From NCBI GenBank assembly GCA_040756435.1, contig JBFLZD010000011.1, positions 7,971 to 71,970 of the forward strand: a DNA stretch of 64,000 bases. Reading direction: 5' to 3'. Source of the DNA: Spirochaetota bacterium. Its GTDB lineage: Bacteria; Spirochaetota; UBA4802; UB4802. Below the pieces are notes generated by a model, which had not been told where the DNA came from, did not search any database, and was given only the letters and a program-made list of their open reading frames with translations. The stretch's first letter is position 1. The number at the start of each line of letters is the position of its first letter. The translations under genes were made by a program, and so were the position numbers. Of the stretch, positions 6,245-61,635 are shown piece after piece.

Positions 6245-7234
6245 CTACGATTTGATATTTTTTAGTATTATGTCAAGATAGTTGTCTAATTCCCCAATAA
6301 GAGGTTTTAATTCATATTCTAGTATATCTGAAAGGCTGACTATATCATTATTTTCCATTATTTCTACAATTTCGGATAACATATCTTGTAATCTGATATT
6401 CAATTCTTCAAGTGATTGATCATTATAGACAATGTCAGCCAGATTTATGCCAAATACCGGTGATACCTGATAGCAGGTTCGCATGTATAAATAAAGGAAA
6501 TCCACAAGTGTATGTATAATCTCCAGTGCTTCATTATCTTTACCTTTTTGATACAGGCTGGCTATCGCCTCTAAATTATTCACCTGCTTTGAAATCATAG
6601 ATTTTAAATCCAGCAGTGTCTGAAAAAGAACATCCGGCGAATCCACACTCTGAATAATAAGATGCTTCAGTGCATCACTGCAAAGTAAAACTCTGAATAA
6701 TGTTGTTACATCATGAAACAATTCATGAATTTTATTAACATCACTATTGGTCCTATTTTCACTTATCATGTTTTGCAATGATTTAATTGAATCAATATAT
6801 TGCTGTACCGTCATATCTTTAAACCGCACATCTTCCCTTTCAAGGCCAAGCATATGCAATACCGACTGTAATACTGAAATAATCCATTCTATACCATAGT
6901 GCAACTGAGTAAACTCATTATCAGTTAATTGCGCAATTGACTCTTTATCTTTTAAATACTGTTCGGCTCTATTACAATATGCAATACCTTCTTTTATGGA
7001 ATCAATCACCACATCACCCACAGACTGGACAAAGCAATTAATATTTTTAATGTCATGTATTGGCGTATCGGGGGCCGAGTCTGGCTGATACAGCACTCCA
7101 TCAACAATAGCACCTGAAAATATCAGGCTTCGCTCTGATGCCCAGCTATGAACTGAACTCATCACATCTTTTACAGTACTTTCTTTTTCTATGGTAAAAT
7201 CAACAGGATGATCATTGATTAAAAGCTGCATCAT
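6245..7234 (-). CDS. Uncharacterized 329-aa protein at the distal end of the filament operon (the position where fliS is expected)
   Basis: RBS aagaggt before the ATG. Starts 20 nt after the fliD stop, in the same orientation. I recognise no domain. It is acidic and predicted helical. Confidence 0.5.
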   Translation of the reverse strand: MMQLLINDHPVDFTIEKESTVKDVMSSVHSWASERSLIFSGAIVDGVLYQPDSAPDTPIHDIKNINCFVQSVGDVVIDSIKEGIAYCNRAEQYLKDKESIAQLTDNEFTQLHYGIEWIISVLQSVLHMLGLEREDVRFKDMTVQQYIDSIKSLQNMISENRTNSDVNKIHELFHDVTTLFRVLLCSDALKHLIIQSVDSPDVLFQTLLDLKSMISKQVNNLEAIASLYQKGKDNEALEIIHTLVDFLYLYMRTCYQVSPVFGINLADIVYNDQSLEELNIRLQDMLSEIVEIMENNDIVSLSDILEYELKPLIGELDNYLDIILKNIKS

Positions 7235-7253: not shown

Positions 7254-9275
7254 TTAATCGCCAGTTTGATTTTTCAAATTTTTCATTTGTTGATCCAGCC
7301 AGTTGCTCTGTGACTTGGATCCTGAGATAGCCTTTTCCATGGAAGCAAATTTTTGCCTTAATTTCTGTTCATACGCTTTCAGATGCTCCTGCTTTCGTTC
7401 AATGCGCTCATCAGTAGCTTTAATAGATGCATCCTCCAGATCCATTTTTGCTACTATGATGTTTTTACCTGCGCTAACATACGGATCCAGGATACTTTCC
7501 ATCTTAAAAGCCAATCCATTATCAATCCGGTTATCGCCATCATTATCCGAACCAAAGAAATCCTGAACACCTTCCGGATTTTCTGACAGCACCTCAACAA
7601 GCTTTGCCTCATCTATTATCAGCTTGCCTTCTCTTATTGTTTCCCACTTTGCATTTATTTCACCGGTTGAAACTCCAATCTGATAAAGCATTTTAACCGG
7701 TTTTTCTACATTTGATGGATAAGCGGAGCTAATTGCGGTCTTCAATGCATTTTGCAACCGCATAAGAGTCATATCCCCAATAAAAATACCGTTTTTATAT
7801 TTATCTTTTTGATAATCACCAACTTTGTCACTTTTTGCTGCTTTTGTTAATTCATTATTAAATGTAAGATAATCATTATATGCTTCAACAAATTTCTTTA
7901 TTTTTTCAACTGCTGTTTCAGTATTCTGACGTATTGTTATAGTAACGGGTTTCGTTGAAGTGCCTAAGAGATTAAGGGTTACCCCCTTTAATACATCATC
8001 AATACCGCTATTTTTGGGTCTAACTATCTCAACTCCATCAAGTTTTATTTTTGCATCATTTGCTTCAGCTATAACATTTTTTGGCTCAAGTATTCCTTCC
8101 CCTTTTATCTCGGTAATCAGTGAGGCATCTTGAAACGTAGCTTTGCCATCATTACAGTAGAACAAAATTTTTGTTATCTTTTTATCTGCAAAATCCTGCC
8201 CTACCGGTATTTCCTGTTTGCCCTGTTTATTTGGGTCTAGCTTATATATTTTTTCAGTACGTTTGCCATCTTCAATCGAAACTACTCCAACACCAATAAT
8301 ATCTTCAACCTCTTTTTTTGGTTTCTTTTCAAGAGGTCGTTCACGGGAAACATTATACCCTTTCAGTTCAATACCTTTTATAACAGTTGTTTCATCAGGA
8401 CCTATCTCAACTTTATAGGGTATTACTTCATCTTCCGATTTTTCTTTTGAATATGTAACATTCAACTCAAGTATTGACTGCTTTTGTGCTTTGTACTCAA
8501 CCGGTAAAATATACTCACGCCATAATTTGGCATCTATTGTTAGCATTTTCCCTTCTTTATCAACTGTCAGAGTACCATCTTCATCCTCTACAGGTTTGTC
8601 ACCAGTATAACCTGTAAAATATTTTGTATCAAAGATTATTCGCTGGGATTCTTTTGCTGCGCCTTTTTCACCTTTTACAAGGCCAATCTTTTTTAAGTAC
8701 TCTTCGTCACCGCGTATTTTTAATTCACCCTTTTTTCCCGGCACTTTTGATTCAATAGTTAAAATACTTTTATCATCGATAGTTTTAATTGTTGTTGCCG
8801 AAACAACACTGGATGCAATTTCATTAATTTTGTCGCTCAATGTTTTGATATTACCACCACGGAATTTTATGGTATATGAATTTCCATCTACTTCAATGCT
8901 GAAAGTTCCTGCGGGCAATATTTCATCTTCTTTAATCTGATCAGTGGATATTTTGTGGGATGAAGCTAAATTCAATACTTCAAGTGTATGTGTGCCATTC
9001 ACTGCATGCCGTGATGCCTGAGCCTGCAAAACACCAGTATCAGAAACCTGGACACCTTTTTCCTTGAATGGTGACCTGAAACCATATAAATCTTTAGTTG
9101 CATTGTTTAATGTATTAAGTTTTGTTTGCAGCTGACGTAAAGCTTCCTTACGGAGAGAATAATTATCTTTTTCCTCCTGCCATTGTATAATAGGCCTGGC
9201 TTCTACTTCAACCAGCTTTTGAATTATCTGGTCGGTATCCATCCCTGATGCTACGCCGCCTAAAGTGACTGGCAT
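7254..9275 (-). CDS. fliD: Flagellar filament capping protein FliD
   Basis: 673 aa. The N-terminal GGVASGMDTDQIIQKLVEVEARPI and the C-terminal ESILDPYV...KQEHLKAYEQKLRQKFASMEKAI are the FliD N and C domains. RBS gaaggga. Confidence 0.85.
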   Translation of the reverse strand: MPVTLGGVASGMDTDQIIQKLVEVEARPIIQWQEEKDNYSLRKEALRQLQTKLNTLNNATKDLYGFRSPFKEKGVQVSDTGVLQAQASRHAVNGTHTLEVLNLASSHKISTDQIKEDEILPAGTFSIEVDGNSYTIKFRGGNIKTLSDKINEIASSVVSATTIKTIDDKSILTIESKVPGKKGELKIRGDEEYLKKIGLVKGEKGAAKESQRIIFDTKYFTGYTGDKPVEDEDGTLTVDKEGKMLTIDAKLWREYILPVEYKAQKQSILELNVTYSKEKSEDEVIPYKVEIGPDETTVIKGIELKGYNVSRERPLEKKPKKEVEDIIGVGVVSIEDGKRTEKIYKLDPNKQGKQEIPVGQDFADKKITKILFYCNDGKATFQDASLITEIKGEGILEPKNVIAEANDAKIKLDGVEIVRPKNSGIDDVLKGVTLNLLGTSTKPVTITIRQNTETAVEKIKKFVEAYNDYLTFNNELTKAAKSDKVGDYQKDKYKNGIFIGDMTLMRLQNALKTAISSAYPSNVEKPVKMLYQIGVSTGEINAKWETIREGKLIIDEAKLVEVLSENPEGVQDFFGSDNDGDNRIDNGLAFKMESILDPYVSAGKNIIVAKMDLEDASIKATDERIERKQEHLKAYEQKLRQKFASMEKAISGSKSQSNWLDQQMKNLKNQTGD

Positions 9276-9341
9276 ACATGTATCCCTTCATGTAAGATAA
9301 TAGTAAAGATAGCAATGTACCCATACTATTTCAATACATTA

Positions 9342-9349
9342 TCGGCAAA
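9342..9349 (-). promoter_or_regulatory. Putative sigma-28 -10 element (GCCGATAA on the minus strand) upstream of fliD
   Basis: The plus strand reads TTATCGGC, which is GCCGATAA on the minus strand. This perfectly matches the FliA -10 consensus and lies about 70 nt upstream of the fliD ATG. The -35 (cTTTAg) is weak. Confidence 0.35.
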
Positions 9350-9839: not shown

Positions 9840-10682
9840 TCATCCCAATAAATGCAATACCAACTGAGGCTTGAAATTAGCCTGAGCCAGCATCGCAACA
9901 CCACTCTGGACGAGGATCTGGTCCTTTGTAAACTCAACCATTTCGGCTGCCATATCCGCATCCCGTATACGGGAATCAGCAGCTAACATATTCTCATAGG
10001 ACATTGCCAGAGCATTGATGGTATTTTCCATCCTGTTGTAGTAGCCACCAAGGTCTGCCCTTTGCCGATTCAGCTTATCTAAAGCTGCATCGATATACCC
10101 TATCATGGCATTTGCCTGACCAACAGTGGAAATTGACCGTTTTCGGTTCCCATCATAAAGGTTTAAAGCCTTGGCACTCATCGTAGTAATAAAGGCTCTA
10201 ATCCTTTGCCCCTGGTTTGGCCCAATATGGAAGAATATGCTTCCTACTCGCGAATTGCGCGCATAAATGCCGGTGAGCATCTTCATACGGTTGAATTCAG
10301 CGGATGTTGAAATCCTGTCGATTTCATCAATAAGCTGTGACACTTCAACCTGAATCTGCGCACGGTCGGCATTTGAATAAATTCCATTGGCAGCCTGTAC
10401 CGATAGCATCCTGATCCTCTGCAGAATATCATTAATCTGCTGTAATGATCCTTCGGCAACCTGTATAAACGAAAGCCCATTTTCGGCATTTCGTTCAGCC
10501 TGGAACAAACCGTTAATCTGTGTCCTCATTTTTTCAGACACAGCAAGCCCCGAAGCATCATCGCCAGCTCTGTTAATCTGCTGGCCGGATGCCAACCGCT
10601 CAATGGACTTATCCATTCGCGATGAGACGATCTTAAGCTGCCTGTTAGCGAATATAGCGCTTAAGTTGTGATTGATTCTCAT
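9840..10682 (-). CDS. Flagellin (paralog 1)
   Basis: 280 aa. MRINHN...[30 protein letters not shown] and C-terminal [15 protein letters not shown]...[22 protein letters not shown]. These are the conserved flagellin D0/D1 domains with no variable domain, as in spirochaete FlaB or Bacillus Hag. Strong RBS aagggaggg. Confidence 0.9.
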
Positions 10683-10999: not shown

Positions 11000-11848
11000 T
11001 TACACAAGTAATCGTAACACCGATTGGGGTTGTAAATTAGCCTGTGCTAACATTGCAGTGCCTGACTGCACAGGGACTGTGTTCTTGGTAAATTCTACCA
11101 TTTCTTCAGCCATATCAGTATCCCGGATACGGGATTCTGATGCCTGAACATTCTCATACGCGGTCATAAGCCCCTTGGCAGTATGCTCAAGCCTGTTATA
11201 ATAGGCACCTAAGTCAGCACGCTGCTTGGAAAGCTTCTGTAGTGCTGCATCCATAACACCAATGGTTGCATTTGCACCACCTGGTGATGTCAGTGTAATA
11301 GCTACTTTACCGGTAGCATCTTTCATCTTGAAAGCCTGAGCTGTCATGGTTCCAATGAATACCCTGACGCGCTGATTGGCGTTAGGTCCCATATGGAACC
11401 ACATGCTTGACTTTGGATTAATCTTGGAGAACTCACCGGTTAATATTTTGAACCGGTTAAATTCTGCCTGCGATGCTATACGGTCCACTTCATCAACCAG
11501 GGCAGATACTTCAACCTGAATAAGTTGACGATCTGCGTTGGTATAGATACCGTTTGCAGCCTGAACCGCCAGAACCCTTATTCTCTGGATAATCTGGGCA
11601 GTCTGTGCTAAATACCCTTCTGCAGTCTGAACAAACGACATACCATCTTCGGTATTTCGTTCAGCCTGACGCAAACCCTGGATCTGGGTTCGCATCTTTT
11701 CAGACACTGCCAAACCAGAAGCATCATCGCCAGCTCTGTTTATTCTTTCACCAGACGATAGCTTCTCCATGCTTTTGTTCACACTCCACTGTGTGAACTT
11801 CAACGTTCTGTTAGCATTTACAGCACTCATGTTGTGGTTGATAATCAT
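11000..11848 (-). CDS. Flagellin (paralog 2)
   Basis: 282 aa. [18 protein letters not shown]...[31 protein letters not shown]. About 70% identical to paralog 1. RBS aaggagtg. Confidence 0.9.
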
Positions 11849-15945: not shown

Positions 15946-16017
15946 CATAATATCCAAAGGATAAGGATATTCCATTGTCCTTATCCTTTGCCAATAACAA
16001 TTAAAAGAGGTGGTAGT

Positions 16018-16602
16018 ATGGCAAAAACATTTTATGAAGTAGTACTGGAAGGTCATTATAACTTTGTCTATGGGATGCTTGAGGGATATAAATTAGCTGC
16101 AGGGAAAAATTTTACTTACTATTTAAGTCAACAGGTTAATGTAAAAGCTACAACGCTTTCTGAGGTACTTAAAGAATTTCTTACCCTTAAAAGTAAGTTA
16201 CAATATGTTATTATTGAAGCTAATTCATGGAAAAAATTTGAAGCAGCTGTTAAAAAACAGCCTGAAAATTCACTCATTAATAAAAAATATATTAAGTCAG
16301 TTAAAAAGATTGAAAGTGCTTCATTTGAATTTAACTTTGAAGCCTATGCCAGAAAATATGGTGATGAAATAAAGAAAATACTTAAGTCATTACCTAAATC
16401 AATTAAGCTTGTTGACTATGCACCAAAAGAAGAAGTTCATAAAGATGCAAAAGGAACTGAACTGTATGCACCTGACCATGAATATTCATTCAAAGGTAAA
16501 GGTAAATTAGTGGGTGACATTGAAACAACTATTTCATTCAACAAGAAATTTGACGAGCACCCCTTAATAGATGTATCTACTATCAGTTTACAATTGAAAT
16601 AA
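16018..16602 (+). CDS. Hypothetical protein
   Basis: RBS agaggtgg 6 nt before the ATG at 16018. Lys-rich; no motif recognised. Confidence 0.45.
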   Translation: MAKTFYEVVLEGHYNFVYGMLEGYKLAAGKNFTYYLSQQVNVKATTLSEVLKEFLTLKSKLQYVIIEANSWKKFEAAVKKQPENSLINKKYIKSVKKIESASFEFNFEAYARKYGDEIKKILKSLPKSIKLVDYAPKEEVHKDAKGTELYAPDHEYSFKGKGKLVGDIETTISFNKKFDEHPLIDVSTISLQLK

Positions 16603-16765: not shown

Positions 16766-17722
16766 ATGAAAAAAACATTAGCAATTAGTATAATCAGTAT
16801 TGTTTGCATTGCTTCAACTATTATATATTCAAAGTACAGGATGTCTTCTTTTGAACCCCAATATATAGGGTTTCTTACTGTTGAAAACAGCACCATTATA
16901 AAACAATTAGATTCATTATTACAAAAAACAAATATAGCAGGTATCAGGGGTAATAAAGAATTAGCAAAATGTTTAGAGGAACAGATTAAATCCTTGAAGC
17001 AATTATCACTTATTGCAATCGCTGATAATGAATACAGTGTTCTTATTGCAGCAAAAAAAGATAGAGTTATTAATCAAAAACTTTTTGATGCAATTATTAC
17101 TGATATTTCCCAGAAAAAGCTATTGCCATCAACAACATTTCCACAAATCACACGGTACTATAGCAATCATAAATATTACTTTTTTATTTATAATGCTCCA
17201 CAGTATACTATTATCACAACATATAGCTTTGTGCTTCCCAAAAATCTTATTATTAAATTAGCACTGGAAAACCTTCTCATTGTTATTATGTTTATCATCA
17301 TTGGCACTGCTATCATTATCACACTTCAACAAAAAGCTAGCAAACCAACCTCAATGAAGGAAGAAAAAACGAAAATAAAACCACATACGCCAAACCCCGT
17401 TGAAGCACTCTGCCAGCAATTTTCAATTATTTCAGTAACTATCGCACAACAAAATAAAAAAGGTAACCTGCAAACCATTTACAGCCACCCTGATAAAAAA
17501 CAAAACGTATACCTGCAACCAGAAATAATTAATGAATTGCTTAATGGCGTACATATACTTGCAGAAAAAAATACAGTATTAATTTTTTATAATGACACCA
17601 CTCAACTTTTTTTCAGACTGGTTAAACATCAGGCTTTTAAAGGAAAAACAATACAGGATATTGAAACGTTTATAGACAATAACAGTGTCTTACTTCTTAA
17701 ATTTTTGAAAATAAAGAAATAA
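16766..17722 (+). CDS. Hypothetical membrane-anchored protein
   Basis: 318 aa with an N-terminal TM segment and a second TM (LLIVIMFIIIGTAIIITL) in mid-protein. This topology resembles a sensor. Confidence 0.45.
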   Translation: MKKTLAISIISIVCIASTIIYSKYRMSSFEPQYIGFLTVENSTIIKQLDSLLQKTNIAGIRGNKELAKCLEEQIKSLKQLSLIAIADNEYSVLIAAKKDRVINQKLFDAIITDISQKKLLPSTTFPQITRYYSNHKYYFFIYNAPQYTIITTYSFVLPKNLIIKLALENLLIVIMFIIIGTAIIITLQQKASKPTSMKEEKTKIKPHTPNPVEALCQQFSIISVTIAQQNKKGNLQTIYSHPDKKQNVYLQPEIINELLNGVHILAEKNTVLIFYNDTTQLFFRLVKHQAFKGKTIQDIETFIDNNSVLLLKFLKIKK

Positions 17723-53260: not shown

Positions 53261-53603
53261 AATGGCAAACCTCAGTAGAGTTTTATATTATTTATTTCCA
53301 TTACGTTAACTCAATAAAAGTATTAAATCAAGTAAAAAAAATTTAGTAAATTTTAATTGCAAATTCAAGTATAAGTGCAACATAAAATAAAAAAGCATTT
53401 TTCTTTGGTTTTTTTTAATTTTTAAGCCTAAATAAAAGAAAGTGGATAGTGGTATAAAAACAATTTTTGACTTACTAAAATTATCATTTTGTGTGGAACA
53501 CTATATACCTTACTGTAAACCATCAATGTAATTAAATTCTGTATTCAATTGATTATTTCCTTTCGTTATAGTATATTTATTACCACATAATAAATATTAA
53601 TTA

Positions 53604-53626
53604 AGATTTGACAAATAAGTGCCGAT
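53604..53626 (+). promoter_or_regulatory. Candidate sigma-28-type promoter for flgM (TTAAG, 15 nt, GCCGATAG); it overlaps a TTGACA hexamer
   Basis: GCCGATAG at 53619-53626 is one mismatch from the GCCGATAA consensus. TTAA lies 15 nt upstream. It is about 30 nt before the flgM ATG. It also overlaps a copy of the iterated oligomer (cgatagttac). Confidence 0.3.
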
Positions 53627-53657
53627 AGTTACTATAGATTAAAAGAAGGTGATTACC

Positions 53658-53951
53658 ATGGTTATTGATAAAATAGGGAACATTAAGAATATTGTTGAAC
53701 CTAAAAACACCAAATCGGTTGGTAAAACCAGATCTACCGGGAAATCTGATTCGGTTGAAATTTCAAGCGAAGCCAAAAAGGCTGCTGAGCAATCTAAAAT
53801 TGCCCAGGTTATAAAGCAGACACCCGATATACGAGCTGAAAGAGTAAGGGAAATTAAAGAACAGATAGCTAATGGTACGTACGATTTCAATGATGACCGT
53901 ATAATAGATAAAGTTGCAGAAAAAATTGCTATGCAGCTTTTACGCAAATAA
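53658..53951 (+). CDS. flgM: Anti-sigma-28 factor FlgM
   Basis: 97 aa. Ser/Lys-rich N-terminus and the C-terminus DIRAERVREIKEQIANGTYDFNDDRIIDKVAEKI, the FlgM sigma-28-binding helices. RBS aagaaggtg. Confidence 0.7.
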   Translation: MVIDKIGNIKNIVEPKNTKSVGKTRSTGKSDSVEISSEAKKAAEQSKIAQVIKQTPDIRAERVREIKEQIANGTYDFNDDRIIDKVAEKIAMQLLRK

Positions 53952-53978: not shown

Positions 53979-55205
53979 ATGGCCGGCATAATTGACAAAA
54001 AGGCGGAATCAGGATTCCGCTTTTTTATGTCTAAAGCCTATGGACAAACCATGGAAGGCCTGTGGCCGGATCTGTATATCCCAACTGCGGTATATGCACA
54101 ACCTGATAGTGTAGCACTCCTTCCATCTATAATTAAGCTTTTTGGCTCCCGTATATTATTTATTACCAGTTCAATTGATTTTAACCAGTATAACCACCTT
54201 TTTATGCCCATTGCACGAAGCCTGCAAAACAATAACATACCGTTTATAGTATATGATGAAATTCCTGAAAACAATACTGATTATATTGATACTGCGGTGT
54301 ATTTTGCCCGTAAAACCCATTGCGACCTGGTTATAGGATTTGGCGGCATCAATTCAATCAATGCGGCAAAAGCAGTTGCGCTGTTAACTCCTAACTATTT
54401 CTTTGCACATGAACTTTTTAACTATCCTTTTTTACATGAACCAATACCATTTATCAGTATTCCCGTACATCCACTGTTTGGTTTTGATATAACTCCCTGC
54501 ACAATACTGACTGATATCCATGATGGTATCCATAAAACCTTTTTCCATAATTACATCTTTCCCAAAGCTGTTATCCTTGACCCCGGTATGTCATTTGGCA
54601 TTGATGAAGTAACATTAGCCAATTACAGCATGGCAACATTAGCTATTGCCACTGAATCGGTTATTTCAAGAAATATCAATAATATTACCAATACACTTTC
54701 TTTAAGAACTATAGACCTCATATTTAAAAATTTACCTGCTGCATTGCGCGAAAGTGACAATGAAACTGCGCGACTTAATATCATGATGTCATCACTTATG
54801 GCGGGCATTGCTTTCAGCAGTGCACAGCTTTCTGTGACATTAGCATTATCACTGGCACTTTCTTCATTGACACCAATTGATATTGCATCATTAATGGCTG
54901 TTATGCTACCACATATTATGGAATATAATTTAACTTCATCTCCTGGTAAATACGTACAGATGTCCAAAGTCATGGATGAGGATGTACGTGATATCACCGT
55001 TATTGAAGCTGCAATTAAAGCAGTGGAAGGTGTACGAAAATTAGCACTTGATGTTGATATTCCACAACGTCTATCGCAATTTGATATTAACAAAGGCATT
55101 TTTTCCAAAGTGGCCGAAATTACATTGACCTACCCATTCATTCACAATGCACCCCGTGCACTCAACCGCGACGAAGTTGAAACCATCCTTATTGCAGCCT
55201 ATTAG
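53979..55205 (+). CDS. Iron-containing alcohol dehydrogenase (Fe-ADH) fold protein with degenerate cofactor and metal sites
   Basis: The architecture follows Fe-ADH throughout: ...DLVIGFGGINSINAAKAVA, PFISIPVHPLFGFDITPCTILTD, PKAVILDPGM, and LPHIMEYN. The GGGSxxD motif and the four metal-ligand positions (D, H, H, H, as in FucO) read S, L, L, I. Its stop is 4 nt before larB. Confidence 0.6.
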   Translation: MAGIIDKKAESGFRFFMSKAYGQTMEGLWPDLYIPTAVYAQPDSVALLPSIIKLFGSRILFITSSIDFNQYNHLFMPIARSLQNNNIPFIVYDEIPENNTDYIDTAVYFARKTHCDLVIGFGGINSINAAKAVALLTPNYFFAHELFNYPFLHEPIPFISIPVHPLFGFDITPCTILTDIHDGIHKTFFHNYIFPKAVILDPGMSFGIDEVTLANYSMATLAIATESVISRNINNITNTLSLRTIDLIFKNLPAALRESDNETARLNIMMSSLMAGIAFSSAQLSVTLALSLALSSLTPIDIASLMAVMLPHIMEYNLTSSPGKYVQMSKVMDEDVRDITVIEAAIKAVEGVRKLALDVDIPQRLSQFDINKGIFSKVAEITLTYPFIHNAPRALNRDEVETILIAAY

Positions 55206-55208
55206 CCT

Positions 55209-55958
55209 ATGAGTCAGTCTTCACTTAACAATTTACTGCAACGGTTTAAAAATGGGCTTGTTTCTGATGAGGATTTTTTACAACAACTATCGCACATTAC
55301 AATAGAACAGTTAGGCCACACTACACTGGATCATCACCGTCACACACGGTTAGGTTTTCCTGAAGTCATTTTTTGCCAAAATAAAACTCCCCAACAGGTT
55401 GCCGACATTGCCAAGGCGTTAGCCAAACGTAAGACAAGTTTTTTAGGTACACGTGCCACCAGAGAGCACTACAACAAAGTTAAAAAGTATATTAAAAAGG
55501 CTCACTATAATGAAGCTGGTAAAATCATTTCTTACCGTGCACAAACGCTTCATCATAAACCACACAAACTTTTAATTATAACTGCTGGCACATCCGATAT
55601 TCCGGTTGCTGAAGAAGCAAAGGAAACCGCGCACATTATGGGGCTTACTGTTGAAACAATCTATGATATTGGGGTTGCAGGAATACATCGTGTATTTCAT
55701 AACTGGGGAAATATTTATGATGCCACAGTCATTATTGTTATAGCCGGTATGGAAGGTGCACTACCAAGCGTTATTGGGGGATTAGTGCCCTGCCCTGTTA
55801 TTGCAGTGCCAACTTCAGTTGGGTATGGTGCTTCATTTGGTGGTGTGGCAGCGCTACTTGGGATGCTCAACTCATGCGCACCGGGGATTAGCGTTGTTAA
55901 CATTGACAACGGCTTTGGCGCTGTATACTGTGCCTACCGTATTATTCGCAATTTGTAG
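55209..55958 (+). CDS. larB: Nickel-pincer cofactor biosynthesis protein LarB (PurE-like AIR-carboxylase family)
   Basis: 249 aa. The PurE-like core LLIITAGTSDIPVAEEAKETAHIMG...AGMEGALPSVIGGLVPCPVIAVPTSVGYG and an N-terminal extension typical of LarB. Confidence 0.8.
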   Translation: MSQSSLNNLLQRFKNGLVSDEDFLQQLSHITIEQLGHTTLDHHRHTRLGFPEVIFCQNKTPQQVADIAKALAKRKTSFLGTRATREHYNKVKKYIKKAHYNEAGKIISYRAQTLHHKPHKLLIITAGTSDIPVAEEAKETAHIMGLTVETIYDIGVAGIHRVFHNWGNIYDATVIIVIAGMEGALPSVIGGLVPCPVIAVPTSVGYGASFGGVAALLGMLNSCAPGISVVNIDNGFGAVYCAYRIIRNL

Positions 55959-55967
55959 GATAGTTAC

Positions 55968-57131
55968 ATGAAAATACTCTACTGTGATGTGCAATTAGGC
56001 GCTTCAGGTGATATGCTTGTTGGCGCATTTCTTGATATGGGGCTTCCTGTTAATGTCCTTACTACCCAGCTCCAATCATTATCAGTAAAAGGTTTTGCGA
56101 TAGTTCCTGAAAAAGTAAAGCGCTATGGTATACAGGGCACTCAGGCTGGTATTACCGCACGCATTGACACCACTAACCGTAATCTTGCGGCCATAAACGA
56201 TATTATTGCACACACGACGTGCTCTGACACCGTAAAAAAAAATGCAATGAAGGTTTTTGATACATTAGCCGCTGCTGAAGGCGCAGTACACGGCATTCCA
56301 AAGGAAGAGGTTCACTTTCATGAGGTTGGAGCCATTGATAGCATTGTAGATATACTTTCTTTTTGCATTGGCATTGAATATTTTGCAATTGATACACTGT
56401 ATTACAGCCCATTTGCGCTGGGCACAGGTACTATCAAAACGCACCATGGTACTTTGCCGTTACCTGCCCCGGCAACCGTTAAGCTTACCGTTGGCAAAAA
56501 GGTTATGTTTACCGGACTGGAAGGGGAACTTACTACACCAACGGCTGCTGCCATCCTAGTAACGCTTGGCACACAACTTTCACATTTTGGAGGTACTGTA
56601 GCAAATGTGGGTATTGGGTTTGGCACCCGTGATTATGGTTTTCCCAGTTATACCAGAGCTTTGCTTATTGATGATAACTCTTTTGAATATGAAGTTCTGA
56701 GTGTACTGGAATGCACCATTGACGACATGAATCCTGAAATATATCCCCATGTGGCTGAGTTACTGTTTGAGGCGGGTGCACGGGACGTGTATATGCAGCA
56801 GGTTATAGCAAAAAAAGGGCGTCCCGGGGTGGTTGTTTCGGTACTCTGCCCTCTAGATGTAGTTAATCAATGTACACAGATTCTTTTACGGCAAACAACC
56901 ACCCTGGGGGTCAGAGCATATACCGTCAACCGCTATTCGCTACCACGGGAGTTTGCAACCGTTACCCTGTACGGAGAAGAGATACATATAAAGCAAAGTT
57001 ACCGTTATCAGGAACTATCGCCAAAACCTGAATTTGAGGATTGTAAAAAAGTAGCAGTAAAAACAGGAAAACCTTTATATGTAATAATGGAAGAGGCTCT
57101 AAAGGAATACTACAAACAGAAGAAATTATAG
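55968..57131 (+). CDS. larC: Nickel insertion protein LarC (DUF111)
   Basis: MKILYCDVQLGASGDMLVGAFLDMG is the LarC/DUF111 N-terminal signature. 387 aa. Confidence 0.8.
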   Translation: MKILYCDVQLGASGDMLVGAFLDMGLPVNVLTTQLQSLSVKGFAIVPEKVKRYGIQGTQAGITARIDTTNRNLAAINDIIAHTTCSDTVKKNAMKVFDTLAAAEGAVHGIPKEEVHFHEVGAIDSIVDILSFCIGIEYFAIDTLYYSPFALGTGTIKTHHGTLPLPAPATVKLTVGKKVMFTGLEGELTTPTAAAILVTLGTQLSHFGGTVANVGIGFGTRDYGFPSYTRALLIDDNSFEYEVLSVLECTIDDMNPEIYPHVAELLFEAGARDVYMQQVIAKKGRPGVVVSVLCPLDVVNQCTQILLRQTTTLGVRAYTVNRYSLPREFATVTLYGEEIHIKQSYRYQELSPKPEFEDCKKVAVKTGKPLYVIMEEALKEYYKQKKL

Positions 57132-57590
57132 CTGCTTCAATTCCTCAGAAGAGAAAATCTGGTCAATATCAAGAATAATGACAAACTTGTTTTCAACCTT
57201 CCCAATACCAATGATAAATTTGCCCGATATACCTTTCACAATTGGCGGGGGCGGTTCAATATCTTTGTGTTCCAGTTTGATTACATGACTTACCTGGTCT
57301 ATTGCTAGCCCTATACGCTTGCCTTTTATATCAACAACTATTGCCCGTTTATTTTTTGCACCCTTTTCGGAAATACCAAAGCGCACACCTAAATCAATAA
57401 TTGGTATAACCTTGCCCCGTAAATCAATGACCCCCATAATATAATCCGCCGATTTTGGGAGTGGTGTAACTGCTGGCAGTTTAAGGATTTCCTGTACTTT
57501 TAAAATTTCAATGCCATATTCTTCCTTACCAATATTGAAGCATACTATCTGCATGCTGCTTAGTGCTGTATCTTTAGTCTGGGTTTTCAT
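57126..57590 (-). CDS. CheW-domain protein (second, standalone)
   Basis: QIVCFNIGKEEYGIEILKVQEI...GVIDLRGKVIPIIDLGVRFG is a CheW domain. 154 aa. Confidence 0.8.
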   Translation of the reverse strand: MKTQTKDTALSSMQIVCFNIGKEEYGIEILKVQEILKLPAVTPLPKSADYIMGVIDLRGKVIPIIDLGVRFGISEKGAKNKRAIVVDIKGKRIGLAIDQVSHVIKLEHKDIEPPPPIVKGISGKFIIGIGKVENKFVIILDIDQIFSSEELKQL

Positions 57591-57784
57591 ACTGAAATCC
57601 TTATTTCAAATTTACTATATTATCACAATAGTAGTAATAGTAATGCTATTTTTCAAGTTAAAATTTTTATTTTTTGGCGATAGTTACTGTTATAAAGACT
57701 TTATTTTCAGCAATAATTCCTTAAAAAATTTTTATAATGAATATAGTTACACCGGGGGTGTCCCAAAACAATTCGTGGAGTTCT

Positions 57785-57920
57785 CAATGACGCGGGTGCA
57801 AAGTCATTGCGAGCGTAGCGAAGCAATCTCAATGCCGCAGAAGACAAGATTGCTTCGTCACTTCGTTCCTCGCAATGACAGTATGGCAAAAGTTATTGCA
57901 GAAGATGTCTTTTGAGACAA
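57785..57920. repeat. Mosaic nested-hairpin repeat, copy 6 (short)
   Basis: gtcattgcgag-cgtag-cgaagcaatctc ... agattgcttcg-tcacttcgttc-ctcgcaatgac forms a nested inverted repeat with 11-bp outer arms. It ends gatgtcttttgagacaactc. Confidence 0.7.
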
Positions 57921-58980: not shown

Positions 58981-61635
58981 ATGAGTTTTAAAAGTACATT
59001 TAATGAACAAATCATTTCCATGCTGCACATTTTTGTAAACGAACAAAAGAAACGTTTCCCTTCTAATGAAGTGTTAACGATTGACCTGCACTGCCATGAT
59101 CACAACAGCAATATTCCCGACGAACAGTTAGGAAGAATATTAGGAATTCCTGAAACGTGGCTGCCAACTGATAATTTGCTTACAACTCTTAAGAACCACG
59201 GTTGCGATACATTTACAATAACAAATCACAATAATGCCCACTCATGTTATGAGCTTTTAGATAAGGGACATGATGTGCTTGTTGGTGCTGAGTTTAGTTG
59301 TACCGTACCCGATTATAAGATTGGCATCCATGTTCTTACGTATGGGTTTACACCTGAGCAGGAAATTAAGTTGAATAAATACCGTAATGATATATATAAA
59401 TTTTTAGATTACACACTTGATCATGACCTTCCAACCATATGGGCACATCCATTGTATCACTACAAATCAAAGGGTATTCCACCTATGGAATTCTTTGACA
59501 AGATGGCTCTTCTCTTTGAACGATTTGAAGTCATCAATGGCCAGCGCGATAGCTGGCAGAATATGCTGGTAAAGCAATGGATTGAATCATTAACGCCCGA
59601 TAAATTAGAAGAGCTATCGCACAAATTCAAAATAAAACCCGATAGATTTTGCAAAAGATCCTATGACAAGTATATGTCTGGTGGTTCCGATAGTCACATG
59701 GGAATATTCACTGGCTTAACGGGAACCTATCTGCACATCCCTGATTTAACCGAAAGATTGAAAACTGAAAAGCGTTCGGCACTGGCACTTGAAGCCATAA
59801 AAAAAGGTGCAATGGCTCCTTTTGGTACACACAATGACAGTGAAAAGATGGCAATTTCTTTCATTGATTATTTTTGCCAGATAGGCTTGAATATGAAAGA
59901 TCCTGGTCTTCCCCATATTCTGTTACACAAAGGTGACGTCAAAGACAAACTGACTGCGCTAGCAATAACCAATGCATTCCATGAATTAAAGCGGCATAAA
60001 ACTACTTTAAACTTTTTAGAGCTTTTTCACAATTCATTAATTGGGAAAACATTTTCCAAAACAAAACGATTCTATGTAAGCAAAGATTATAAAAGGGTTT
60101 TTGATATTGCCTACAAACTATCACGATATACAAAAACCAGGAAAAAAGATGATGTGACATTCTATACACAATCAATATATGGAATATATAAAGAGCTTGT
60201 GCAACTGCTTTTGAAGCGTTCTGACAAGCATATAAACGAATTGCTAAACAATGACCAATTTAAATTAAAAGAATTTGAATCATTCTTTAAAAATATTGAA
60301 ATCCCAAGCCATTTTAGAAAATATATTGAAGGTAATGAAAAATCTAATGGTAATGGTTCAGTCAAAGTTAACCTACCAAAACTTTTTGACGAGTTATCAT
60401 TCCCGTTTTTAGGATCAGCTGTGATTGCTGCAGCCTTCTTTACCAGTGCGCGCGTAATGTATAAAGCACGACCTTTGCTTTATGAATTTGCAAAAGAACA
60501 CAATACCCTCAAACATCCGGAACGCACATTATGGCTCACTGATACATTTACCGATTCCAATGGTGTTGCAATGGTATTGCAATCCATGCTTAAGGAAATT
60601 CAAACACGTGATCTACCCATTGATATCATTACTATCAGCAGTACACTTGAATCACAGGATCACTTAATTGTTATCAGGCCACTGAAAGAATTTACCCTTC
60701 CATTTTATGAACAGCAACCATTGCGTATCCCCGATATTCTTGAAATCCACAATATCTTCAAACAAGGGGAATACAGTAGAATTATTGCTTCAACCGAAGG
60801 ACCAATGGGATTAGCTGCACTGTGGTTAAAATATGCATATTCCGTTCCTGCATTTTTCTATGTGCACACTGACTGGATGATGTTTGCAGAACAAACATTA
60901 AAGTTAACCGATGAAAACTTACATAATTTCAGGCGTCTGTTGCGGACCTTTTACAAAGGATTTGATGGATTGTTTGTTCTTAATAACGAACACCGCAAAT
61001 GGCTAACAGGCAAAGACATGGGCTTTAACCCATCACAGGTATTTTTAACTGCACACTGGGTTGAAGAAATTTTCAAACCCCATACGATAAAAAAAGATGA
61101 AATTTTTGGAGTGAATAACACAACGCCTATAATACTTTTTACAGGAAGACTATCAGAAGAAAAAGGTGTTATGGATATTCCAAAAATCATGGAGATAGTT
61201 AAGCAAAAACATCCTGAGGCAAAAGTGGTTTTTGCCGGTATTGGACCAAAAGAACAAGAATTAAAACAGCTTTTGCCTGATGCAATCTTTTTAGGATGGA
61301 TACAGCATGATACTTTACCCAGGATATACTCAGCAGCAGATGTTTTGGTTTTGCCATCACGATTTGATACATTTGGATGTGTTGTGCTTGAAGCATTATC
61401 GTGCGGACTGCCTGTACTAGCTTACAACACAAAAGGGCCCAGGGATATTATTAACAACGGTTTAAATGGATATCTGGTCAAAAATGAGATTGAAATGGGC
61501 CAAAAGATCACAGAACTTTTGGATAATCCTCTGCTTATGAACCTCTTCAAAAATCAAGCATTACTCCGTGCCCATGAATTCAGCCCTGATGCAATTATTA
61601 AGCAATTCATCAATGACCTTAACACAGCAGCATAG
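58981..61635 (+). CDS. Fusion protein: N-terminal PHP-like metal-dependent phosphoesterase domain plus C-terminal GT4 (GT1-fold) glycosyltransferase
   Basis: The N-terminal part carries IDLHCHDHNSN, TITNHNNAHS and GAEFS, which are PHP motifs. The C-terminal part carries LFTGRLSEEKGV and the EX7E motif FGCVVLEALSCGLPVLAYNTKGPRDII, which mark GT4. 884 aa. RBS aagagga. Confidence 0.7.
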   Translation: MSFKSTFNEQIISMLHIFVNEQKKRFPSNEVLTIDLHCHDHNSNIPDEQLGRILGIPETWLPTDNLLTTLKNHGCDTFTITNHNNAHSCYELLDKGHDVLVGAEFSCTVPDYKIGIHVLTYGFTPEQEIKLNKYRNDIYKFLDYTLDHDLPTIWAHPLYHYKSKGIPPMEFFDKMALLFERFEVINGQRDSWQNMLVKQWIESLTPDKLEELSHKFKIKPDRFCKRSYDKYMSGGSDSHMGIFTGLTGTYLHIPDLTERLKTEKRSALALEAIKKGAMAPFGTHNDSEKMAISFIDYFCQIGLNMKDPGLPHILLHKGDVKDKLTALAITNAFHELKRHKTTLNFLELFHNSLIGKTFSKTKRFYVSKDYKRVFDIAYKLSRYTKTRKKDDVTFYTQSIYGIYKELVQLLLKRSDKHINELLNNDQFKLKEFESFFKNIEIPSHFRKYIEGNEKSNGNGSVKVNLPKLFDELSFPFLGSAVIAAAFFTSARVMYKARPLLYEFAKEHNTLKHPERTLWLTDTFTDSNGVAMVLQSMLKEIQTRDLPIDIITISSTLESQDHLIVIRPLKEFTLPFYEQQPLRIPDILEIHNIFKQGEYSRIIASTEGPMGLAALWLKYAYSVPAFFYVHTDWMMFAEQTLKLTDENLHNFRRLLRTFYKGFDGLFVLNNEHRKWLTGKDMGFNPSQVFLTAHWVEEIFKPHTIKKDEIFGVNNTTPIILFTGRLSEEKGVMDIPKIMEIVKQKHPEAKVVFAGIGPKEQELKQLLPDAIFLGWIQHDTLPRIYSAADVLVLPSRFDTFGCVVLEALSCGLPVLAYNTKGPRDIINNGLNGYLVKNEIEMGQKITELLDNPLLMNLFKNQALLRAHEFSPDAIIKQFINDLNTAA

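Follow-up and report, generated by a model that had tools for sequence, protein, structure and literature searches.

Iron-containing alcohol dehydrogenases (Fe-ADHs) such as FucO, DhaT and ZmADH2 have a two-domain fold and carry Asp/His/His/His metal ligands, the NAD motifs GGGSxxD and NTTAGT, and an aspartate for the adenosine ribose. ErcA, also of the Fe-ADH fold, is named by NCBI as a regulatory rather than a metabolic protein. In enteric flagellar operons of the flgMN type, another small late gene, controlled by sigma-28, comes after flgM. The classical client of the cofactor nickel-pincer nucleotide (NPN) is the LarA superfamily. NphT is an NPMN-dependent homologue of the aldo-keto reductases (AKRs), a TIM barrel (PDB 9YEB) in which K200 serves as a Lys tether and H144 as a His nickel ligand, both missing from canonical AKRs; annotation as NAD(P) oxidoreductase is common among genes next to lar genes (PMC13524815). 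Here we analyse ADHL ("ADH-like"), a gene for a ligand-less protein of the Fe-ADH fold that lies between flgM and the nickel-pincer genes larB and larC in Spirochaetota bacterium (assembly GCA_040756435.1, contig JBFLZD010000011.1). "The window" denotes the whole 64,000-nucleotide stretch analysed, and all coordinates refer to it. An original prediction, made from the letters of this DNA alone, had proposed, as one hypothesis, that ADHL is a scaffold repurposed to bind NPN. We give about an even chance to a different reading, in which ADHL belongs to the flgM transcription unit as a pseudoenzyme without redox activity, and larB-larC (larBC) were added later at its 3' end in one lineage.

ADHL shares the two-domain fold of the Fe-ADHs over its full length. 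Both Pfam profiles of the superfamily matched: PF00465 (Fe-ADH, 93 bits, cut-off 31.3) over residues 35–202 (profile 1–168 of 168) and PF25137 (ADH_Fe_C, 105 bits, cut-off 27) over residues 217–408 (profile 5–194 of 194). An AlphaFold2 model built on 33 family members (predicted local distance difference test (pLDDT) 89) retrieved 8zrl, 3owo (ZmADH2), 3bfj (DhaT) and 1rrm (FucO) in Foldseek with template modelling (TM) scores of 0.86–0.88. Against DhaT, ZmADH2 and FucO the model gave TM 0.87–0.88, a root-mean-square deviation of 1.8–2.2 Å and 19–23% identity, which bears out the Fe-ADH architecture from end to end that had been predicted.

The residues that make these enzymes work are gone. 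Ligand and NAD positions were read from a HMMER and MAFFT alignment to Klebsiella pneumoniae DhaT (3bfj). From the DhaT and FucO structures we take D198, H202, H267 and H281 of DhaT (D196, H200, H263 and H277 of FucO) to be the metal ligands, and these align with A219, I223, L288 and I302 of ADHL. The four DhaT columns were D/H/H/H in 90 canonical cluster representatives, and the neighbouring column 271 was variable. At the NAD site, GGGSxxD corresponds to F121-GGINSI-N128, NTTAGT to PVHPLF, and the aspartate that binds the adenosine ribose (DhaT D41) to S65; the family consensus at the two NAD motifs is GFGGIESIN and PxxPxFGFE. The original prediction was right that all four ligands are replaced and that GGGSxxD is altered, but its alignment was about two residues off, and the ligand replacements it read as Ser, Leu, Leu and Ile are Ala, Ile, Leu and Ile. 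No intact ligands shifted by gaps emerged from the profile alignment, and the ligand loss stands. Of the canonical features, ADHL retains K131 (DhaT K109), H312 (DhaT H291), D93 and N317. The analysis thus confirms the predicted ligand-less pseudo-dehydrogenase with an Fe-ADH fold. Among the NCBIfam enzyme equivalogs ADHL fell far below every cut-off, and no above-cut-off model points to an activity; the best match, over residues 43–405, was ErcA (NF041833) at 147 bits. The ErcA cut-off is 550 bits, a gap that makes ADHL no orthologue of ErcA, and the flgM context is unrelated.

The same losses extend through a whole family. All of the best 120 database homologues (48–91% identity) lack the four ligands, and all are from Spirochaetota where named. 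When one genome per species was scanned, 506 genomes proved to encode a relative, the best 80 of which are all metagenome-assembled genomes (MAGs) of Spirochaetota/Leptospirales. A wide profile search covered 1.84 billion cluster representatives (50% clusters), from which 137 full-length representatives were compared; 41 of these (about 230–630 bits) have no ligands, no GGGS and no TTAGT, and canonical proteins with D/H/H/H, GGGS and TTAGT show up only below about 235 bits. Ligand-less members occur in Leptospira interrogans (AAN50194.1/AAS69677.1, UniProt Q8F1Y2, our P0535; 37% identity to ADHL) and in the cultured Turneriella parva DSM 21527 (AFM13510.1; 35% identity), and both are annotated as "iron-containing alcohol dehydrogenase".

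Conservation within the family is highest at residues 311–358 (LPHIMEYNLTSSPGKYVQMSKVMDEDVRDITVIEAAIKAVEGVRKL; LPHIMEYNLTSSPGKYV...VIEAAIKAVEGVRKL) and in the last 8 residues, which are 83–98% identical to the consensus, and the 311–358 block is almost unchanged in L. interrogans and T. parva. The former metal site holds interchangeable hydrophobic residues (conservation 0.57–0.69), and the region of the canonical nicotinamide-ribose Lys (0.49) is the least conserved part of ADHL. ADHL represents a strongly conserved family of its own under strong purifying selection, not a decaying paralogue, and belongs to an old and sizeable clade in Leptospirales-type spirochaetes that takes in pathogenic Leptospira, T. 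parva and uncultured lineages. Within a well-known superfamily, this family is a new ligand-less variant that has no name yet. The fallback offered by the original prediction, an inactive paralogue that is merely co-transcribed, comes closer to this picture than the NPN scaffold, but does not allow for the strong conservation of a separate family. Our literature search found nothing relevant on the ADHL family, Q8F1Y2, an NPN enzyme of the Fe-ADH fold, an ADH-like gene behind flgM, or lactate racemase in Leptospira.

Some more distant ligand-less members lie in other surroundings. Two (L088 and L090) are divergent from a gidB+spoU methyltransferase fusion and one (L094) has a bactofilin gene on one side and an AraC-type regulator on the other, each with neither flgM nor lar genes nearby; L088 also has a CitMHS_2 transporter gene and an MptE-like gene (motility-accessory-factor type) downstream.

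In the window, ADHL is embedded in the following features (+, forward strand; −, reverse strand):

53602..53628, +, sigma-28 (FliA)-type promoter-like site, TAAG-N15-GCCGATAG, read from the sequence 5' of flgM
53659..53951, +, flgM, anti-sigma-28 factor, 97 aa from ATG 53659 (PF04316, TIGR03824)
53979..55205, +, ADHL, ligand-less Fe-ADH-fold gene, called open reading frame (ORF) of 408 aa with full-length Pfam match
53997..54026, +, intrinsic-terminator-like hairpin: A-tract 53997–54001, stem 54003–54009/54014–54020, loop CAGG, T-run 54021–54026
55209..55958, +, larB, NaAD carboxylase/hydrolase of nickel-pincer cofactor synthesis, 249 aa (NF033503)
55968..57131, +, larC, CTP-dependent nickel insertase with LarC1 and LarC2 fused, 387 aa (PF01969, TIGR00299, NF052512)
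57126..57590, −, cheW, convergent (PF01584, 135.9 bits)

The three ORFs from ADHL to larC were recovered at the coordinates originally given. The flgM product exceeds the cut-offs of both its profiles (PF04316, 53.9 bits; TIGR03824, 51.3 bits); the ORF finder begins it at GTG 53649, and the gene call in locus L001 is the 97-aa form. The che operon (cheA-cheY-cheW-MCP-MCP-cheR-cheD-cheB) is on the opposite strand, farther upstream.

The firmest neighbour of ADHL is flgM. We took a census of neighbourhoods by tblastn and ORF clustering on 82 species-level ADHL loci: flgM is directly upstream on the same strand in 79, and each of the remaining three is split or runs into a contig end. The original prediction had placed flgM upstream correctly but missed it as the invariant partner. 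A convergent cheW accompanies 76 of the 82 loci, and in most lar-less loci ADHL and cheW are −1 to about 30 nt apart. Throughout the MAG lineage the whole block rsmI-flgM-ADHL-cheW-...-hfq-miaA-gmk-remA-yicC-cheD-cheR is conserved. The flgM-ADHL pair also occurs in L089, L093 and T. parva (L091), despite differing other neighbours: in T. parva (CP002959.1, 2984065–3005228) the pair is followed by OmpL37 and flanked on the other side by Lsa36, and in L089 the order is rsmI-flgM-ADHL with DUF218 downstream. The pair is kept across three otherwise unrelated genomic contexts. In T. parva, ADHL and the OmpL37-family gene have overlapping stop and start codons.

A promoter signal lies before flgM and not between the two genes. 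Of 80 related loci, 73 have the motif TAAA-N15-xCCGATAx at 48–61 nt before flgM, where chance would give about 5, and none of the 80 flgM-ADHL intergenic regions contains it (background 0.31 hits per kb). The window site at 53602–53628 is of this TAAA-N15-GCCGATAA type and is overlapped by a sigma-70-like TTGACA-16-TACTAT site. Elsewhere in the window, a perfect GCCGATAA −10 element at 9339–9346 (−) stands ~60 nt upstream of a 673-aa FliD-like ORF (7254–9275). The arrangement resembles flgM-flgN late flagellar operons in having flgM behind a promoter of this type and a conserved second gene on the same strand; it differs in its second gene, whose 43-kDa product has a dehydrogenase fold and is no FlgN-like chaperone, and in the terminator-like hairpin between the genes.

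This hairpin is widespread: an A-tract/AAAAAGCGG...CCGC-T6-8 element between flgM and the ADHL core was present in 79 of 85 loci, and T. parva also has it. The stem (GCGG...CCGC) recurs in 61 distinct stem-loop sequences, all of which fold. Folded as the plus strand, the window hairpin has a minimum free energy of −26.6 kcal/mol (z-score −3.4); the terminator tool places it on the minus strand, at 54020–54003. An Rfam scan of the flgM-ADHL region gave no match at the gathering score and only a sub-threshold rli52 (27 bits vs 70). As a separate observation, the sequence at the base of the stem is conserved far beyond the needs of a generic terminator.

The position of the hairpin also bears on where ADHL begins. 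In the window it falls within codons 7–16 of the called 408-aa ORF, residues 1–27 of the model have pLDDT below 50, family members are 384–390 aa long, and Met1 of the T. parva protein aligns with M25 of the query. For these reasons the true start is probably ATG 54027 (392 aa) or ATG 54051 (384 aa), not 53979. The T-run would then be 0–24 nt from the start codon in the window, compared with ~10 nt in T. parva, which therefore leaves little or no room for a separate ADHL promoter 3' of the hairpin. We infer that transcription from the flgM promoter may read through an attenuating terminator and so express ADHL, with larBC where present.

Combined with the family evidence, this gives the first half of the reading we favour. 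Without a catalytic metal site and canonical NAD(P) motifs, ADHL would be a non-redox pseudoenzyme; it would act by binding a putative partner or small ligand through its conserved C-terminal surface (residues 311–358), and, as the distal part of the flgM unit of late flagellar genes, would be made only at the low level that read-through allows.

The alternative that survives best, though we consider it doubtful, accepts the pseudoenzyme and denies the unit: ADHL would be a non-catalytic housekeeping protein tied neither to flgM nor to the flagellar regulon nor to lar, left in place by inherited synteny, with the hairpin ending flgM and an ADHL promoter of its own in or overlapping the 3' region of flgM. 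Conservation of the long rsmI-to-cheR block as a whole in the MAG lineage speaks for it, as do the canonical form of the terminator between the two genes and the distant ligand-less members that stand beside gidB/spoU or bactofilin/araC without flgM. Yet the flgM-ADHL pair survives when its surroundings change, to Lsa36 and OmpL37 in T. parva and to DUF218 in L089, and the T-run sits too close to the start codon in both T. parva and the window for a promoter to fit.

The lar genes have a much narrower distribution than flgM. In the window both genes, as identified in the original prediction, are intact and above their equivalog cut-offs: LarB matched the NCBIfam equivalog NF033503 (300.5 bits, cut-off 175, profile 1–208 of 209), and LarC matched PF01969 (408 bits), TIGR00299 (LarC1, 182 vs 90) and NF052512 (LarC2, 134 vs 50). 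The ADHL-larB junction reads TAG-cct-ATG, a 3-nt spacer (not 4 nt, as first given) without a Shine-Dalgarno site; the 9-nt spacer originally reported between larB and larC holds (TAG-gatagttac-ATG, with a TAGGAT Shine-Dalgarno-like site). At its 3' end larC converges on cheW with a 6-nt overlap (57126–57131) that includes the larC stop codon, therefore leaving no terminator between the two. Across the census, larB is directly behind ADHL in 36 of the 82 loci and larC in 32, and 46 are without larBC at the level of the locus. The spacer between ADHL and larB is 1–4 nt in 32 of the 35 with-lar loci where it could be measured. The adjacency seen in the original prediction is therefore real and not peculiar to the window genome, and the idea that orthologues might never co-occur with lar genes is refuted for larB and larC. 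For larE, also named there, tblastn with a Bacteroidales LarE (E ≤ 1e-5) found none in the window or in any 10-kb flank. In a separate homologue search with the LarE of L084, a Bacteroidales locus, the matches listed were filled by Bacteroidales LarE at ≥69% identity, and that search is uninformative for spirochaetes. Because larE lies away from the locus, the lar genes are evidently dispersed in with-lar genomes.

With-lar loci form contiguous, clade-structured groups in a neighbour-joining tree, which was rooted on one very distant outgroup (DhaT) and was not used to decide between gain and loss of larBC. Inside these groups, L047 and L038 are without both larB and larC, L045 retains larB but not larC, and L029 has an N-terminally truncated LarB; ADHL is intact in all four. 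Within the lar clade, larC or larBC have been lost in no fewer than three lineages that kept ADHL intact. With-lar and lar-less ADHL proteins differ only in conservative changes that follow phylogeny (K/R250, Y/F316, G/A351 and I/L381), and no residue in this comparison tracks the presence of lar. K250 was considered as a lar-specific lysine tether and rejected: L047 and L038 have lost larBC yet have K, L026 combines larBC with R, and K is also found in the basal lar-less loci. No other gene cluster was specific to with-lar loci among the 82.

A search with LarC, of which we compared the best 120 of 7956 hits, gives the same outline. Among these, nearly every homologue of ≥40% identity that sits on a long contig shares that contig with ADHL (in L083 the order rsmI-flgM-ADHL-larB-larC-cheW was verified), and hits below 40% identity are from other phyla. 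Four contigs with a lar-less locus (4.80, 4.95, 2.28 and 1.58 Mb) had no LarC among the same 120, which is weak evidence. Three hits that border on the spirochaete clade from outside (P0196, P0199 and P0202) were set aside as other organisms without an ADH-like gene; their contexts are larC-larE-larB-wbqC and larE-larC-thiS-AFOR clusters. None of the six distant ADHL-family contexts sampled, T. parva included, shows an independent lar association. The simplest history would be a single insertion of larBC behind ADHL, followed by vertical inheritance and several losses. On the pseudoenzyme reading, larB-larC would have joined the 3' end of the flgM unit once, in one sub-lineage that includes the window, and would most likely supply the nickel-pincer cofactor to other enzymes (for example LarA homologues elsewhere), not to ADHL.

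A few details of these neighbourhoods are recorded as observations. In three Bacteroidales loci (L084, L086 and L087) the larC-larE-larB-wbqC cluster is divergent from a DUF362 + Fer4_5 (NosR-like) pair, and 17 lar-less spirochaete loci (L002 and 16 others) have a related pair 4–5 kb upstream of rsmI-flgM-ADHL; the spirochaete and Bacteroidales pairs are about 40% and 29% identical, and this may be coincidence. In L085 (CAZTJA010000001.1), from a MAG, larE, larC, thiS and an aldehyde:ferredoxin oxidoreductase (AFOR) gene form a cluster, and neither larB nor larA lies within 10 kb of it.

The hypothesis of the original prediction, in which ADHL binds NPN or a LarB/LarC intermediate in its remodelled dinucleotide cleft, as a new hydride-transfer enzyme or an NPN carrier, with larBC elsewhere in the lar-less genomes, now looks unlikely. 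In its favour are the tight larB-larC coupling in 36 of 82 loci, the intact LarB and LarC in a window without LarA, and the invariance of K131 and H312 in the family alongside cofactor loops that are remodelled yet conserved. The absence of LarA was correctly predicted: no Lar_N/DUF2088 domain was found in the window by the Pfam scan, and the scanned ORFs of the window include no homologue of LarA, LarE, the AKRs or ornithine cyclodeaminase. NphT, an NAD(P)-dependent fold switched to NPMN, is a precedent (PMC13524815). Like ADHL, it has an NAD(P)-oxidoreductase fold beside nickel-pincer genes and altered canonical cofactor determinants.

The comparison with NphT also shows where ADHL departs. 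NphT has a different fold and is found beside larB, larC and larE, whereas no larE is near ADHL. NphT gained its Lys and His relative to canonical relatives; ADHL shows no new Lys or His in these alignments, and most of its orthologues have no lar neighbour. K131 and H312 are the only invariant cleft Lys and His of the ADHL family, and both are shared with canonical Fe-ADHs, hence not new acquisitions. With the LarA superfamily ADHL has only the genomic association with larB/larC in common, and no sequence or fold similarity.

The history also weighs against the NPN scaffold. The loss of ligands and NAD motifs is common to distant members in lar-free contexts (T. parva and the gidB/spoU- and bactofilin/araC-linked genes), and ligand loss thus predates the lar association and is far wider than it. 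Since, in addition, no sequence feature of ADHL tracks lar, we conclude that the degenerate site is not an adaptation to the nickel-pincer cofactor. The adjacency proposed originally stands, and the argument drawn from ligand loss is weakened by the lar-free relatives and the 46 lar-less loci. Also to be set against NPN binding are the secondary losses with ADHL intact, the variable hydrophobics at the metal-site positions with the strongest conservation elsewhere (residues 311–358), the absence of larE from every flank, the near-complete lar-less contigs without LarC among the hits compared, and the six distant contexts without lar. Spirochaetota that have LarA homologues carry two or more per genome on average (PMC11770544), so ordinary NPN clients are likely to lie elsewhere. 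The fuller version of the idea, that ADHL would make the group III ADH fold a further scaffold for NPN or a LarB/LarC intermediate, after LarA, ornithine cyclodeaminase and the AKR homologue NphT, expressed, unexpectedly, within the late flagellar flgM unit of Leptospirales, with relatives in pathogenic Leptospira among them, is about as unlikely.

Several points nevertheless count against the pseudoenzyme reading. Both remodelled loops, the Gly-rich one (GFGGIESINAAK) and PxxPxFGFE, show good conservation of their own, and a ligand pocket may therefore persist. The 1–4 nt spacer between ADHL and larB, without a Shine-Dalgarno site, is kept across lineages whose LarC proteins are only 40–48% identical, and such tight coupling usually marks proteins that work together. 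Among the LarC matches listed, larBC of the ADHL lineage were found only at the ADHL locus. Lar-less status describes the locus, and lar genes, given their evident dispersal, may lie elsewhere in those genomes. Finally, NphT may be read as a direct precedent for the repurposing of an NAD(P)-type scaffold for the nickel-pincer cofactor (PMC13524815).

With these points included, the non-redox pseudoenzyme of the flgM unit remains the reading we favour. That ADHL is still an enzyme, with non-canonical NAD(P) binding, another cofactor or a metal on different residues and no relation to nickel-pincer chemistry, is the least probable alternative: strong purifying selection along the full length, a retained two-domain fold with its cleft, and invariant polar residues absent from canonical enzymes (D104, D246, E315, E350, R353 and E401) would suit it, but every determinant checked is gone (the adenosine-ribose Asp, the pyrophosphate motif GGGS, the TTAGT loop and all four ligands), the nicotinamide-ribose Lys region is the least conserved part, and the best family model is the regulatory ErcA, far under its cut-off.

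Other parts of the window held further features. After cheW, at ~57600–57920, ORFs on both strands encode peptides of the CHCEERSDEAI.../LLRYARNDF... type, typical of a short repeated palindromic element, not of genes. In an 884-aa protein (58981–61635, +), GT4/GT1 glycosyltransferase domains are confined to the C-terminal 360 residues; its N-terminal ~500 residues are without a Pfam match and begin with a His-rich motif, HCHDHNSN. Three ORFs of 204–329 aa (6245–7234, −; 15988–16602, +; 16766–17722, +) have no Pfam match, and the first of these is directly downstream of the FliD-like gene and two flagellin-like genes (9840–10682 and 11000–11848).

For nickel-pincer biology, the tight coupling to larB-larC in one sub-lineage makes ADHL a cheap and clearly defined test case for the repeated conversion of NAD folds to nickel-pincer use: a positive binding result would add a new scaffold, and a negative one would indicate that lar adjacency alone is an insufficient predictor. 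For genome annotation, hundreds of spirochaete genomes label an ADHL-family protein as an iron-containing alcohol dehydrogenase; iron and NAD binding in the known mode is not possible for this family, and metabolic reconstructions that use the label are therefore wrong. For the spirochaetes themselves, the fixed place behind flgM, the sigma-28 promoter and the attenuator-like hairpin point to an unrecognised late flagellar or motility component in Leptospirales, and this flagellar link has cultured models in T. parva and Leptospira.

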